From Escherichia coli (GTDB lineage: Bacteria; Pseudomonadota; Gammaproteobacteria; Enterobacterales; Enterobacteriaceae), in assembly GCF_003334815.1 (NCBI RefSeq), contig NZ_QOWO01000053.1: a stretch of DNA of 19,069 nt; one strand, 5' to 3'. Shown piece by piece: positions 12,001-18,000 of this stretch (its first letter is position 1; each line of letters opens with the position of its first letter). A program made the position numbers.

Positions 12001-15000
12001 GAATTGATAATTTTTCGTACAGACTTGTTTTCCGTGGGTATGTAATAACTGAAAAACTCAAATCATAAGATTCCAGTCTCTTTATAAGTTTATTTATTCT
12101 TGCTGGAGTAAAGAGATGTGAATGCATGACAATGATTTCATCATTATTAATTGCTTTTGATATCAGAGAAAGCAATACATCCCAGTGTTTCCTCATTGAC
12201 TTCGGGCAACGTGTGTCAGCATAGGGGCTAAGATGTATAGTTGATTTCTTGCTTCCCTTTTTCTTCTTCACAAAGAATGTGAAGTCGTATTTAGATGCAG
12301 ACCTTACAATAAGAAGTACACATCTGAAAAGTAGTGGGAAAATGCAAATCACAACCACCACACAGAAATATAACATATAAGGCAATGATAAGTTGTCAGT
12401 GTATGGATAACGTAAGTATTGCCATGGGGTAGTGATGTACAGACAAAGCGTACACCAAAGCAACCATAGATATAATGGTACGTTATTATTTTTCATATTA
12501 GTTGACTTTTAATACTGTTTTCTATCACCACATTTTTATGTGTCTCATTTGGCACTTCGTACTGTTGGAAATATTGTTGGCGGCGGATGCGTGTCTGTTC
12601 ACTGCTTTCTATTAACACCGCCATGGCGATTGCAAAGTATATGCAAATCAGGAAAATCCAGAACGCGTTTGGTATCTTCCAAAAAAGTGTGGACAGTTTG
12701 TTATGTGGTGAAACTAAAATCGGAGAAAGGATTCCACAGACAATCACAATCGCGATGGTTAATTTAACTAAAAAGAACACGGCCCCCACCTGTTTTGACG
12801 AGGTCTTTTGTTTTTGTTGTGTTTACGACAGCCAGTCCTGTAGATGCTGATGGCGGGAGCTGCTGCCCTTGTGCCAGCGGCAGTGGCTGCCGGGAGCACG
12901 CTCCAGTCGGAACAGAAATCGGTTGTCGCGTAGTACCACCACGAGACAGTTATCCGGCGTGCAGAAACGTCGGGCAAGCTCATCGGGGTCTGTCGGTGTT
13001 TTCGTTGAAAACAGCCTGCGTTTGCAGTGTGCGTCGACGACCAGTATTTGCAGTCGTCCGGGATGTTGCTGTGGCATCAAAGACTCCTTCCGGAACGGGA
13101 AAAGAAGCAGCTGTACCGTCATAACTGCACGTACCGGTTGCGAAAAAACGGCACAAGCGAGTAGTGACAGAAAGAATGTCGGAAACGGCAGGAAGGGCGG
13201 TACAGGCTGCGAAGACGGGAAACGGGTTGTGTTGGGAATTAACGCACGTGAGGTGTGATGAGAACGACGCGCTTTTCGCCAGCTCCGTCTCCGGTGAATC
13301 CATTCACGACAAGGGACTGTTCCGGTCTGAGAGAAATGCTTTGTTCAACAGTCTGTTTTCGTTTCTGGTCTGTGGTCGAGAGTCGCAGAGTGATATTTCC
13401 GGGCGCACCGTGAATATCCGGTGATACCTGCATTCTGACACCGGGAGAGACATCTGCAGTGAAGGTATCCGGACCTACGGACGTTACCAGTGATTCAACA
13501 CAGGGCGTATTCTGTATCATCCCGTGGAGCGTTTCAGGTGTCAGCGTCAGGCTGCCATTAAAAAATGCACTGCGTGAAATACTCCCCTGAGCACCGGCAA
13601 ACAGGTCCGGATGGCGCTCATTAAGAAGGCTTCCGTATTTTTCCGCCAGGCAGATTGGGTTGCTGGCCGTTGTGTCTGTTCGCACGGTATCGACCGTGAA
13701 TGTCACCTGCGGGTGATGTTCCCTGTGGCCTGTGCAGCCGGACAGCAGTGCGGCGGCTATCGTCATCCAGAGTAGTGGTTGTTTTTTCATGCTGTTAATT
13801 TCCTCTCAGGGTAAAAAGAAAGACTCGCACCGTCATGTCGATGGGGGCCGCTTGCGAAAAAATGGCACAAGCGAGTAGTGACAGAAAGAATGTCGGAAAC
13901 GGCAGGAAGGGCGGTACAGGCTGCGAAGACTGGAAACGGGGTATGCCGGGGATTACACATCCTCAGTGTAATGTGATAGTTGTCTGCTCCTGTGTTGCAC
14001 CCCAGACATCTTCTGGCAGGCTGGGCAGCCCGATAAATAGGGTGTGAAAGAGGGTTTCTCTGCGTTCGATCCCGAATTGATGTTCGTATCCTCTCACCAC
14101 CTGAAATCCTTCGTCGGAGAATATTAACTCTGCCGTTTCCAGAAGCTGCATAGTTTTGCGGTGTAGTGGAGTGATCAGCTGCAACGTAACTGGTGCCCTC
14201 ATATCGCCTGTCGGTAGAAAACACTCTTCGGTGCGACTTAGTTGTAGCAGATGACGTTTCCCGGAACAGGCCCGTTCAATGGATTCATTGAACACCCTCT
14301 CAGGCCATGGGCAGACATATGTGCGCCAGCCTGCTTTCTGTAATTTACCCAGTGCAGCCCGAAAACGAAACAACGGACATTCCCCGACAGTGGCAGAGCT
14401 GAGAAAGAGCGTATTCAGCGTTCCGATGATGGGAATATTGCGATCTTTTTCGGTCAATGCTTTTAACGCCATGATTTCGCCAGGGAGACTACGGAACTCA
14501 GGATGTCTGCTGGCACCAGAAAGCCATTCAAGCAGGTAATGCCGTAATCCGGTTTCACTGGTTATATTGTGGTTTTCCTGTGCCGTTTTCAGGGCATTCA
14601 GTGCACACCAGAGCAACTGGCGCACGGGATGTTCTGTCGTGGTCATGCGAATGTCCTACTGTGAGATGAAAAGAAGACCGGTATCCGCTCTCTCCGCCAC
14701 ACGTGATGGCACGGGCCGGCCTTTGATAAAACGAATCAATACTCTGGGGTGAAGCCTTTTATTTCTTTCGCCATTAAGAAATACACGATTCCATCAAAAG
14801 ACAGGGGGAGTCCATGGTGGGGATGGCTTCGTGCAGGCTTCACTCCAGAATATTCTCTGAATTGAAAAAAGCCCGGCCCGAAGGCCGGGAAATACTGGCT
14901 ATGGGATGTTTACAAGGCGCTCCATAAAGCCGTGATGTTCGGCATTTGATACCAGTTCCAGGAGCAGGGATATCCTCGACTCAGGCTGGAGAGTATTTTC

Positions 15001-18000
15001 CATTCTGAGGAGATACTGATATTGTGCTTTTGTCAGCCATATGCTGGAAGCCGCATTCAGCTCTTCCCTGGCTCCCGGATTTAGCACAGGGTCCGGGTAA
15101 ATCTTCATTAATCCATCAACAATATCTTTATTGACGGGTTTTATTTCACCGCCAAACTTCACGAAATCAATGAAGGCGCTATGGCGACGTAATGCCGATA
15201 CTGGTTGAATGTCAAAATTAGCCAGAATAAAAAAGTACCCTGGAAAAATAGCGAATATTCTTTCACGGTAACAGCGCCTGGAGTCTGCCCGTCTTATCTT
15301 TCTTGTTATTAATGGAGTCCATGGTACGACGTTTTGCTCATTCAGCCATGAGAATAAAGATTCTCTGTTTTTGCCGGCTGTATTATATTGCGCAAGATAC
15401 CAGTTCCGGTTATTCAGGTGTTCTATATTCACGAAGTTCAACGCTCCGCGCAAAACCGATCCATGATGGACGATTTTGCGATGTCAGGCGAATATGCTAA
15501 ATCATATGTCTGAAGCAGTGTCCAGCCCATATCTGGATAAACTGCAGTTCTGACAGGCATATAACCAGCAGACTCTAGTACGTTCTGTATCGGTGATTTG
15601 GCGAACTCACAGATAAAGAACGGCTAAGCACTAATATCAGCAATACAGTGGCACAGTATTGTGATACGCGAAATAAAACATCAGCACGTCAGTTCAGAGT
15701 AAGATCGCCATATATCGGGCATGAGCCAGATACAAATAACTGGGACACCGTCTGAAGTGATTTGCTTTATTAAAGTAACTTGTGCTTGGTGTTTATGTTT
15801 ATCAATTTGGGATCGCCTGTAAAGTGCAAAATGCAATTTCCATGAAAGTGTCCCCTTTAATGGGGACACCTGTTCACATTTTTTCGTTTTCTTTAGCTGT
15901 ATTGCTAATCATGAAAACGAAAGTTCGCATCAGCACAGCAGAGCGAAGTGCATCATATCCTTCCAGATTTAAATTCTTCAGGCTTCGCTTCAGGTAGGTT
16001 CGTACCGTTTCGGGAGAAAGCCGACAGTTCTGAGCAATGGCGTCGTAAGGAACACCCATTGCGTAAAAAACGCAGACTTTAAGCTGGTTTGTTGATAGCT
16101 CGGGAAACATGCCTTCCAACAGAGTGATGGCCGGGAGTTTCTGTATCAGTTGAGGTGACATAGCAAAGGTCTCCGATGACAACTAAAAACGCTATCACCG
16201 AGTTCCTACGCTCATTGGTGATAGCCCAGACGGGGGTAGGAATACCGGCGTCATCGGAAACCGGCCAGGCTAATGCCTGCCCCGCCTGAGCTACCATAGA
16301 TGACGACAAGAAATACAAGTTCCTGTCTTTATGGTATGGCAAAAAACGACGCCAAATGAAGAAATTAACTTCTGCGCCGACGATGACTACGCGGGTTCCT
16401 ACGCCCGATCACAGTTTTGCCTGTGACCAGTAAAGGGTACTTAGTATAACGCACCGAGTCAACTAACAGCTTAAAAAACATACAAAAAAGCGTTAAAACT
16501 TAACGCTCCGCGCCGAAGCGATCCAGGCATGATGCTTCTGCTTTGTGGCGTTCGAACATGCTGGTCCATATGCACGAAACGGTGTCTGACCCTCGTCCAG
16601 ACAATCCGCAGTTCTGACGAACATATGAACAAATATGCTCTTGTAGAGGCTGTTGTTACACAATTGGCGGGTTGTGTAACAAATGGTTTTATCATCTAAG
16701 AATTATTCTATTTACGATCGAATGATCTACAAAATGATTTTTTAAAGGTTTTTTAGATCGTTTAATCGCATTAAAACAGAATATTATTCTGTTAGGTGGA
16801 TCGGTTGTAAGATAAATGATCGTGAGTAGGACAAAAGTCGATCTTTTAATCCAAAAGAAGGATCTAAAGCAGAAAAATCTGCTTTTAAAAATAGATTTTA
16901 TTTTTTTTGACGCAGGTCAAGATTAACTTATTAGAGGTATCAGTGAGGAGGCACTGGAAGAGAAGAGATCGTTGTAATGCTTTTCAAATTAACGTAAAGC
17001 GGGTATATTTCGGCTGTTATTAGCTGTGCAGAGGGTGGCACTCTGTGGAGCAAAGCGGCGAAAGTCGGACGGCAGAATGCGCCATAAGGCATTCAGGAGA
17101 GATGGCATGTACGGGCAGTAAGTCAGAAGACTGAAGATGTTCCGGAAGCCATAAAAGGAAAACCCCCACTATCTTTCTTACGAACTTGGCGGAACGACGA
17201 AAGATAGTGGGGGCCTCACAGAATACGGGTAAAGTATAATGAAACCGTACCAGAGATTCAACCCTGTGCAGTGTATAAATACACGGCACAATCGCTCCGC
17301 CATAAGCGACAGCTTGTGGCAGGTCTGAAGAATACTCCATATAACGCAGTACACTGGAGTCAGTTAGCACCCGAAGAGCAGATCCGTTTCTGGGAAGACT
17401 ATGAAGCGGGAAGGGCGACCACTTTCCTGGTTGAACCGGAAAGGAAGCGCACGAAGCGCCGTCGCGGTGAACACTCCACCAAACCCAAATGCGAAAATCC
17501 GTCCTGGTATCGTCCTGCGCGCTATAAGGCGCTGAGCGGGCAGCTCGGGCACGCCTACAACCGTCTGGTGAAAAAGGACCCGGTGACCGGCGAGCAGAGC
17601 CTGCGCATGCACATGTCTCTGCATCCTTTTTACGTGCAGAAACGAACGTATGCCGGTCGCAAATATGCTTTCCGTCCGGAAAAACAACGCCTCCTCGATG
17701 CCATCTGGCCGGTTCTGGTCAGCTTCAGTGATGCGGGCACACATACCGTAGGCATGAGTGTTTCCCGTCTGGCCCGAGAAATCAGCCCGAAAGACAGCAA
17801 GGGGAAGGTTATTCCGGAACTGGAAGTGACGGTCTCCCGCCTTTCCCGTTTGCTGGCCGAACAGGTACGTTTTGGTGTGCTGGGTGTTTCAGAGGAAACC
17901 CTGTGGGACCGTGAAACCCGCCAGCGTCTGCCACGTTACGTCTGGATAACACCGGCAGGCTGGCAGATGCTGGGCGTCGACATGGTAAAACTTCACGAAC

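Follow-up and report, generated by a model that had tools for sequence, protein, structure and literature searches.

A conserved leader element as candidate recruitment site of TraB, the RfaH-like NusG paralogue of IncI1 plasmids

In the 19,069-nucleotide stretch of Escherichia coli DNA analyzed here (contig NZ_QOWO01000053.1, hereafter the window), an open reading frame ending at 14899 on the minus strand had been taken, in a sequence-only reading, for a plasmid-borne NusG/RfaH paralogue. This raises the question of which gene it is and of where its product would be loaded on RNA polymerase. The ORF is traB of IncI1 (R64-type) plasmids, an already known gene and, as a gene, an ordinary one. 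The locus is 100% identical to that of IncI1-type plasmids (record NC_005014 was used for comparison), in which an annotated NusG-family protein lies between traA and traC, and it is present in 1483 plasmid records. The paralogue assignment is supported, and had already been made by RefSeq, which names the product NusG-family protein, and in published papers, where TraB is described as a NusG paralogue, a PrfaH homologue (named as such for R64 TraB; PMC11880322) and a required activator of pil transcription and conjugation. Deletion of traB in pESI lowered the pilV, pilS and pilT transcripts and abolished conjugation (PMC5013300), and in pESBL and pMS7163B traB is likewise required, as is traC. 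TraB is essential for the transfer of IncI-complex plasmids, which are prominent vehicles of resistance genes, ESBL genes included, and which, in one survey, hold about 45% of all plasmid-borne nusG-family genes. In the literature searched, we found no description of the loading site or the targets of TraB.

Start codon, NGN domain and C-terminal domain of TraB

The gene order is traA-traB-traC-pil...tra on one strand, and all transfer genes from traA to trbC are co-oriented, with traB at their head. The coding sequence and the codons preceding it are as follows.

14899..15432, minus strand: traB coding sequence, 177 aa, GTG start and TAG stop, a specialised NusG-family (RfaH-like) paralogue (PGAP WP_001306770.1 on an identical plasmid)
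15433..15453, minus strand: the seven codons from TTG 15453 to GTG 15432, non-coding, forming the 3' end of a conserved leader element

In the mechanical ORF, the first codon of start type is TTG 15453, which had been regarded as the only start available and would give a 184-aa protein. However, the GTG at 15432, seven codons downstream, is used by PGAP and is aligned with the start of every homologue, this position being ATG in six diverged lineages (L004, L005, L007, L008, L011 and L012). An in-frame TGA stands just upstream of the start codon in L005 and L007, which excludes an N-terminal extension. The stretch between the two codons is conserved at the nucleotide level (GCGCGGAGCGTT) and not at the codon level, and the extension is absent or stopped in homologues. 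A start at TTG is therefore highly improbable.

The two domains of the protein were located as follows.

15112..15405, minus strand: NGN domain, residues 10-107 (Pfam PF02357, AF2, Foldseek)
14944..15039, minus strand: C-terminal helical hairpin, residues 132-163 (WLTKAQYQYLLRME...ESRISLLLELV), collinear with RfaH 116-147, KOW glycines lost

The N-terminal half had been read as an RfaH-like NGN domain, and Pfam, NCBIfam, the PDB sequence search and the AlphaFold model all agree with this. A profile search places it in the NGN family (PF02357, E=5.8e-5), and the same profile matches 12 of the 13 TraB family members at E<=0.001 (best 6.8e-9). Among NCBIfam families, RfaH scored best (TIGR01955, E=5e-11), with an alignment spanning profile positions 1-151 of 159, but the 42.8 bits did not reach the cut-off of 144.5 bits, nor did the 37.4 bits against the RfaH model NF006534 reach its cut-off of 124. 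Scores were lower for NusG (TIGR00922, 11.8 bits for a cut-off of 135.7) and weak for LoaP (E=0.0019, 18 bits for a cut-off of 125). TraB is far below the RfaH equivalog cut-off, an observation that counts against the loading model set out below.

The best PDB sequence match was the IncX3 protein PrfaH (9ik0, E=2.6e-11). The AF2 model (pLDDT 82, pTM 0.77; 90-97 in the NGN part) had as its best Foldseek matches the ops-bound autoinhibited RfaH 5ond (TM 0.81 on the target) and PrfaH 9ik0, and RfaH, PrfaH and NusG were each matched at a probability of 1.00. An invariant FPGYFF patch (TraB residues 63-68) aligns with the FPNYLF segment of RfaH, and W11, P40, Y66 and F68 are invariant across 45 aligned sequences. 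By contrast, the RfaH residues that contact ops (K10, R16, H20, T72 and R73) are aligned with T18, E24, W29, H84 and S85 of TraB and all differ, while within the TraB family some of these positions are conserved, H84 and S85 among them. This pattern fits a specificity private to the family.

The C-terminus had been described as unlike a KOW domain. This holds in that no KOW motif was detectable: none of the 13 TraB family members matched Pfam KOW (PF00467), a profile against which E. coli RfaH itself reaches only E=0.034, and hhalign found no similarity to the KOW domain of E. coli NusG (E=0.52 over 7 columns). It has to be qualified with respect to RfaH: the segment aligns collinearly with the C-terminal domain of RfaH, and an RfaH-like helical hairpin is predicted for it. 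Over the full length, hhalign aligned TraB with RfaH at a probability of 92%; with the C-terminal domains alone the register was unchanged but the alignment was not significant (E=0.092), so the case for homology of this part is made by collinearity, by intermediates in the 45-sequence alignment, in which R153 is invariant with RfaH included, and by the predicted fold. In the AF2 prediction, helices cover residues 135-146 and 150-163 (pLDDT 68-84), and 160 columns of the model can be superposed on autoinhibited RfaH. The isolated domain was also predicted as all-helical (pLDDT 71), on the basis of a shallow alignment of 12 sequences. The TraB and RfaH C-terminal domains did not differ in Chou-Fasman propensities for helix and strand, which do not discriminate between them. 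Many TraB family members end 6-10 residues past the second helix and have no segment aligning to the last RfaH strands. The TraB family is also a natural test of whether RfaH-type factors need a fold-switching KOW state.

Candidate recruitment elements in the leaders

To locate a recruitment site, the window was searched for the canonical ops (GGCGGTAGNNTG). At up to 2 mismatches we obtained 14 matches for 11.3 expected, none of them in a leader, and no match had fewer than 2 mismatches, which is chance level. The absence of a canonical ops noted earlier is thus confirmed, and the idea that the recruitment element, if any, is non-canonical is supported. This element had been suggested to lie in 89-bp repeats, which correspond to a 108-nt direct repeat, D1, whose copies are 93% identical.

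13848..13955, minus strand: D1 copy between traC and traD, an untranslated leader rich in C and poor in G
13134..13241, minus strand: D1 copy in the traD-pilI spacer, leader of pilI

The suggestion was not borne out, since the repeats upstream of traD and pilI share no motif with the traB leader, lack the element common to the tra leaders and are kept in close relatives only; traD and one D1 copy are missing from pESBL and NZ_CP024292.1. Nowhere else in the regulatory region is the sequence as rich in C and poor in G as in the repeats (per 78 nt, C makes up 38-42% and G 15-17%, for a regional median C/G of 1.1), and this composition would suit a target of termination better than a site of loading.

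The leader of traB itself (15440-15558, or its 3' part 15440-15484), of which the window holds two copies, is a better candidate.

15440..15558, minus strand: leader cassette copy 1, abutting the traB start, candidate TraB loading site, core 15440-15451
16502..16620, minus strand: leader cassette copy 2, about 340 nt upstream of traA, with the identical core GCGCGGAGCGTT at 16502-16513 (repeat family D2)

Copy 1 consists of the blocks GTCAGAACTGCAG, CTGCTTCAG and TATTCGCC, a hairpin Hp1 (3' arm GGATCGG) and a mini-hairpin GCGC-GGA-GCGT followed by T. An exact-motif search of the window found the core twice, both times on the minus strand. The leader, of about 120 nt and ending GCGC-GGA-GCGT-T, lies directly against the traB start in 10 of 12 lineages, at protein identities as low as 42%, and is absent from two distant lineages, L009 and L010. 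An 85-kb IncI1 plasmid has exactly three full copies, all on the sense strand and all at block heads, upstream of traA, traB and traH. In an IncB/O-type plasmid, which has one uninterrupted 40-kb gene array, a search for extra copies found only the traB copy.

As for its structure, pairing in the proposed fold extends to 94% of cells, whereas slid controls reach 32-44%; compensatory changes occur in 5 pairs. The mini-hairpin stem is invariant, so covariation says nothing about the mini-hairpin. Its single-stranded DNA folding energy was -1.9 to -3.1 kcal/mol, that of ops -0.9 and that of the PrfaH site -2.9; none of these is distinguishable from that of shuffled sequence, so that folding energy does not discriminate.

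The leader could instead act as RNA, either as a LoaP-style hairpin recruiting TraB or as a traB translational operator, ribosome-binding structure or stability element unrelated to TraB loading, and we regard this as a possible but less likely explanation. LoaP, another NusG paralogue, recognises an RNA hairpin. The element is necessarily transcribed, being 1-12 nt ahead of the start codon; its predicted helices contain many G-U pairs, which fits RNA at least as well as non-template DNA, and the compensatory changes in Hp1 are typical of RNA structure. In addition, the mini-hairpin loop carries a GGAG, within the core and 4-12 nt ahead of the traB start codon, which in copy 1 probably doubles as the traB Shine-Dalgarno sequence, so that the conservation of copy 1 could partly be that of a ribosome-binding site. 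However, the next start codon is about 340 nt away from copy 2 and about 210 nt away from copy 3, so a ribosome-binding role cannot explain these copies, and a pure traB translation element would be unexpected at the head of the traH block. Moreover, PrfaH, the closest characterised relative, binds non-template single-stranded DNA.

Alternatively, the cassette of about 120 nt could mainly be a repeated activator-dependent promoter region (for example for TraC or TraA), TraB being recruited elsewhere or without a specific site. The conserved blocks do continue upstream of the core for about 120-170 nt, both traB and traC are needed as regulators, and in published reporter assays traB expression was raised by sequences upstream of the predicted traB promoters and by TraA, to which, via a 54-bp region upstream of the predicted traB promoter, the activation of traB is partly credited. 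Control of initiation therefore also exists. Nevertheless, a consensus scan of the cassettes found no sigma-70-like promoter, and conservation is highest at the 3' end, which touches the start codon and is necessarily downstream of any promoter. All copies have one orientation, the helices are strand-specific, and lineages devoid of traA (L005, L006 and L007) retain the element. We consider this explanation unlikely. The conservation in these same three lineages makes a role of the leader as a TraA operator unlikely as well.

Terminators and a model for TraB loading

We retain the traB leader as the candidate loading site. Two terminator-type hairpins lie close to the leader copies and the gene.

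14866..14889, minus strand: intrinsic terminator 10 nt past the traB stop and before traC, CCCGGCC-TTCG-GGCCGGG-CTTTTTT, 7 G-C pairs (terminator scan)
16487..16509, minus strand: terminator-like hairpin and T-run, 10 pairs followed by TTTGTATGTT, its 5' arm overlapping the 3' half of the copy-2 core

A terminator was found at the equivalent place after traB in 10 of 12 diverged lineages, with stem sequences that differ. Leader copy 2 and traA are separated by a phage P1-type C4 antisense RNA module, which falls within the published 'Hft' region, where transposon insertions yield 'superspreader' plasmids.

We propose, as the more probable reading, that TraB loads on RNA polymerase at the leader and carries it through terminators along the co-oriented transfer region of about 50 kb. 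In free TraB, the C-terminal helical hairpin would mask the polymerase-binding surface, as in autoinhibited RfaH. The NGN domain would bind elongating RNA polymerase, with loading at the hairpin-forming cassette of the sense strand ending GCGC-GGA-GCGT-T in the traB 5' leader, contacted as non-template DNA or as RNA, and the additional IncI1 copies upstream of traA and traH could serve likewise. The modified polymerase would then pass the intrinsic terminator after traB and further polarity sites, for which the C-rich leaders of traD and pilI are candidates. The outcome would be expression of traC, the pil operon and the T4SS genes.

More tentatively, the circuit may extend further: a private bipartite hairpin leader (about 45-120 nt) at three IncI1 block heads, a TraB C-terminal domain no longer able to form a KOW barrel (an antiterminator with no ribosome coupling) and the C4 antisense RNA might together make up an antisense-RNA/polarity and antitermination switch that sets the IncI1 conjugation rate. 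The gene itself is not news; the possible use of these results is a precise candidate site, the core, at three IncI1 leaders. With this core, the conserved terminator after traB and the C4-type antisense RNA of the superspreader region, the regulatory circuit becomes directly testable.

Comparison with known systems

TraB shares the NGN fold with housekeeping NusG, but its C-terminus is unlike the NusG KOW domain, and its gene is carried by a plasmid and serves a single gene cluster. LoaP, from a different phylogenetic group (Firmicutes), is likewise a specialised NusG paralogue, acting on intrinsic terminators in a long operon, and its recruitment by a leader hairpin is a possible parallel to TraB. 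With E. coli RfaH (ops GGCGGTAGCGTG), TraB has in common the two-domain layout, an NGN domain with the FPxY(L/F)F patch and a collinear C-terminal segment (EARSMLLLNLI in RfaH, ESRISLLLELV in TraB), for which the model predicts an autoinhibitory helical hairpin. Compared by eye, the TraB leader core resembles ops minus one loop base (GCGG-AGCGT versus GCGGTAGCGT). In contrast, identity to RfaH is 18-21%, the window has no canonical ops, and both the ops-contacting residues and the KOW glycines have changed.

The closest likeness is with PrfaH of IncX3 plasmids (PDB 9ik0; Yang et al., Commun Biol 2025, PMC11880322), which ranks among the top matches in fold and is the best match in sequence among solved structures, although the sequence alignment is confined to the NGN domain at about 33% identity. 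Both are plasmid NusG/RfaH-like proteins that conjugation requires, and their genes stand at the head of the transfer genes. The 5' UTR of the PrfaH gene contains an ops-like hairpin, to which PrfaH binds in the non-template strand, overcoming a terminator (PMC11880322). PrfaH is loaded at this small leader hairpin of the gene that encodes it, for which the TraB leader hairpin is a candidate counterpart, and in both systems a terminator separates the factor gene from the transfer genes, which TraB would allow polymerase to read through. In sequence, the TraB leader core (GCGC-GGA-GCGT, about -19 to -8) does not resemble the PrfaH site (TCGGGGTCATCCGAG, hexaloop, -42 to -25). Finally, unlike the PrfaH system, IncI1 has three leader copies, with TraC and TraA as further regulators.

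The traB locus, its start codon and the NGN domain

By nucleotide comparison, the region 14600-16400 was 100% identical to many IncI1/I-complex plasmids (1483 matching plasmid records, 1393 of them at 99% identity or above). These records label the open reading frame 'transcription termination/antitermination NusG family protein'; traA and traC flank it, pilI and the pil operon are located downstream, and a divergent repA is upstream. In whole plasmids, traA-traB-traC-pil-shufflon-traE...traY-excA-trbABC form a co-oriented array of ~50 kb on a single strand. The repZ regulatory-region pseudoknot expected for an IncI1 replicon was also detected (Rfam RF01087, 194.5 bits; 17155-17303, +). 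The gene and family assignment is already known: TraB is listed among plasmid-borne NusG paralogues in two reviews (PMC6391919; PMC9630627), TraB of pESI was described as NusG-like (PMC5013300), and R64 TraB was named as a homologue of the IncX3 protein PrfaH in a paper that places 45% of the nusG-family genes of plasmids on IncI-complex plasmids (PMC11880322). In transposon studies, both traB and traC were essential for transfer. The second essential regulator, traC, lies at 13963-14646 (-), and its homologue in plasmid pVP444 carries a DUF2913 family protein annotation.

The mechanical open reading frame (14899-15453, minus strand, 184 aa) begins with TTG, which the sequence-only reading had taken as the only available start. 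This was wrong, since PGAP chose the GTG at 15432 and the equivalent codon is the start in all homologues, down to ~40% identity. For eleven further lineages, with protein identities from 92% down to about 40%, we gathered the traB loci (12 with the window); six lineages use ATG as the start codon, one uses TTG, and the IncI1 group uses GTG. Moreover, two relatives' loci (L005 and L007) carry an in-frame TGA 5' of it, and the 21 bases from 15453 to 15432 are conserved at the nucleotide level, not at the codon level.

The placement of the N-terminal half in the NGN family was confirmed by profile search: TraB matched Pfam PF02357 at E=6e-5, and 12 of the 13 TraB family members did so at E<=0.001. 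The top NCBIfam model was RfaH (TIGR01955, E=5e-11, profile positions 1-151 of 159 aligned), with a score of 42.8 bits, far under the 144.5-bit cut-off. The nearest solved structure by sequence was PrfaH (PDB 9ik0, E=2.6e-11, NGN part only), and E. coli RfaH aligned with TraB over the full length at E of about 0.08.

The C-terminal domain of TraB

The C-terminus had been described as not resembling a KOW domain, and this holds at the sequence level: no TraB family member searched matched Pfam KOW, and the KOW glycines are lost. E. coli RfaH, which served as a control, reached no better than E=0.034 for a partial KOW match. The description calls for a qualification, as the TraB C-terminus aligns in register with the RfaH C-terminal domain and is predicted to be helical. 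Residues 9-167 of the TraB family profile aligned with residues 2-152 of E. coli RfaH (probability 92%), and a 45-sequence alignment bridges TraB to RfaH-like proteins. R153 of TraB is invariant in that alignment and pairs with the arginine within EARSMLLL of RfaH; the register sets W-L-T-x-x-Q-Y...S-R-I-x-L-L-L of TraB against V-I-I-T-E-G-A-F...A-R-S-M-L-L-L of RfaH. Used alone, the TraB C-terminal alignment recovered the same register against the RfaH C-terminal domain without reaching significance (E=0.092), and it gave no match at all to the NusG KOW domain.

The AlphaFold2 model built from the 45-sequence alignment (pLDDT 82, pTM 0.77) showed a confident NGN domain followed by helices at 119-128, 135-146 and 150-163. 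Its top structural matches were autoinhibited RfaH (5ond; target-normalised TM 0.81, 160 columns) and PrfaH. From a family-only alignment, the isolated C-terminal part was predicted as all-helical with a modest pLDDT of 71; a simple propensity calculation on refolding of this domain was uninformative. Many family members stop 6-10 residues past the second helix and thus have nothing to align with the final part of RfaH. Overall, the TraB C-terminus is most readily interpreted as a diverged C-terminal domain of the RfaH type that adopts the helical state.

Repeats and leader cassettes as candidate recruitment sites

The canonical ops site was absent from the window. The sequence-only reading had proposed that any recruitment element is non-canonical and might lie in 89-bp repeats. 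We delimited these as follows:

13134-13241 and 13848-13955, 108-nt direct repeat, 93% identical, either side of traD
13239-13790, traD, lipoprotein-like open reading frame of 183 aa

The gene traD is present in R64; pESBL and NZ_CP024292.1 do not have it and carry a single repeat copy, a pattern suggesting that recombination between the repeats added or removed traD. Within the regulatory region, no other stretches are as rich in C and as poor in G as these repeats, read on the sense strand (C 38-42%, G 13-17% per 78 nt; median C/G 1.1); such a composition would fit a Rho loading site. As the location of a recruitment element they are unsupported, since we found no motif common to them and the other tra leaders and they are kept only in close relatives.

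The more general idea of a non-canonical element remains reasonable, and a concrete, conserved candidate that can be tested lies before traB. A second repeat family (15440-15484 and 16502-16546) ends in GCGCGGAGCGTT on the sense strand, a sequence with no other exact copy in the window. In 10 of the 12 lineages, including the window, a leader element with the consensus GGATC(G/A)-N5-7-GC-(GGA/GAA/GCGA/GAGA)-GC-N-T was located 1-12 nt 5' of the traB start codon; it was not found in the remaining two loci, L009 and L010. A longer alignment revealed a cassette of ~120 nt that carries the conserved blocks GTCAGAACTGCAG, CTGYTTCAG and TATTCGCC, a hairpin with the 3' arm GGATCGATTC, and then a mini-hairpin. 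RNAalifold predicted three helices. In the predicted structure 94% of cells paired, versus 32-44% with partners slid by 1-3 columns, and both-sided changes occurred at five pairs, a count reached in 8 of 500 shuffles; the structure was derived from the very alignment used for this pairing test, and covariation is silent on the mini-hairpin because its stem is invariant.

A complete IncI1 plasmid of 85 kb has exactly three copies of the full element, all on the transfer-gene sense strand:

copy 1, adjoining traB
copy 2, ~340 nt upstream of traA
copy 3, GGATCGATTCGGCGCGGAGCGTT, ~210 nt upstream of traH; NZ_CP024292.1 71204-71226 (26204-26226 of L014, the locus taken from that record), minus strand, in the intergenic stretch that separates traH from a histidine phosphatase family gene, outside the window

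The essential T4SS block begins with traH. Only the traB copy is present in an IncB/O-type plasmid whose genes from traB to excA form an uninterrupted 40-kb array. Lineages without traA keep the element, which therefore tracks traB and not traA.

Compared by eye, the core GCGG-AGCGT has the same two G-C pairs as ops (GCGGTAGCGT), with a loop of three versus four bases. Its predicted single-stranded DNA stability was within the range of ops and the PrfaH site, and not different from that of shuffled sequence. The GGAG of the core is probably at the same time the ribosome-binding site of traB; this makes the loading-site argument weaker for copy 1 and leaves copies 2 and 3 unaffected. We found no definition of a TraB loading site in the literature searched. 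Upstream of copy 2, a terminator scan also returned an inverted repeat of 13 pairs (16653-16682, TTGTTACACAATTGGCGGGTTGTGTAACAA), which could be an operator.

A C4-like RNA, terminators and the proposed read-through by TraB

Between leader copy 2 and traA, we identified a full-length C4 antisense RNA (Rfam RF01695; 16214-16301, sense strand, -) at 77.5 bits against a gathering score of 45, together with sub-threshold Rfam matches to c4-a1b1 and isrK-like RNAs at 16342-16440 (-). The P1-type C4 module represses through a translation block and polarity. A C4 module acting through polarity would be a natural counterpart to an anti-polarity factor. All these matches fall, by coordinate transfer, inside the 270-bp 'Hft' region (pESBL 35394-35663, window 16184-16453). 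Transposon insertions in this 'superspreader' region raised transfer and traA expression by factors of about 20 and about 50, respectively; the authors suspected small RNAs and named none, and these two papers make no mention of a C4-type RNA (PMC4288162; PMC5801416). The open reading frame hp1 (16079-16342, -), an 'ash family protein' in the pESBL RefSeq record, overlaps the C4-like RNA gene. Hp1 expressed in trans had no effect in published work, and hp1 may be no genuine coding sequence but an artefact of annotation across an RNA gene.

Comparison of the window, pESBL and R64-drd11 gave three drd11-specific substitutions:

16290, outer stem of the C4-like RNA
16200, 14 nt 3' of the C4-like RNA
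15987 (-), CGA to TGA at traA codon 59, in agreement with the published truncation

As in pESBL, codon 59 is CGA (Arg) in the window, which thus encodes full-length TraA.

Past the traB stop codon lies a strong intrinsic terminator (14866-14889; stem of 7 G-C pairs with a T-run). In 10 of the 12 lineages this position holds a terminator, with stem sequences that differ, and in the lineages examined the traC homologue is always 3' of it. A terminator-like hairpin (16487-16509) directly follows leader copy 2, overlapping core bases, and copy 3 has a similar, weaker hairpin. We propose that most traB-making transcripts would end at the terminator after traB and that TraB, once present, would load on polymerase at the leader cassette; the TraB-bearing polymerase would then read through to traC, traD, pil and further. 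In IncI1 plasmids, the same loading could take place at the traA-proximal and traH-proximal cassettes. We infer the binding step, the ligand type (non-template DNA or RNA) and the terminators that TraB would target. A traB deletion in pESI reduced the transcripts of pilV, pilS and pilT, and conjugation was abolished (PMC5013300).

PrfaH binds an 18-nt hairpin-forming site on the non-template strand in its own 5' UTR and overcomes a terminator upstream of virB1 (PMC11880322). The arrangement proposed for TraB follows the PrfaH design, which likewise combines a site in the factor's own leader with a terminator ahead of the transfer genes.
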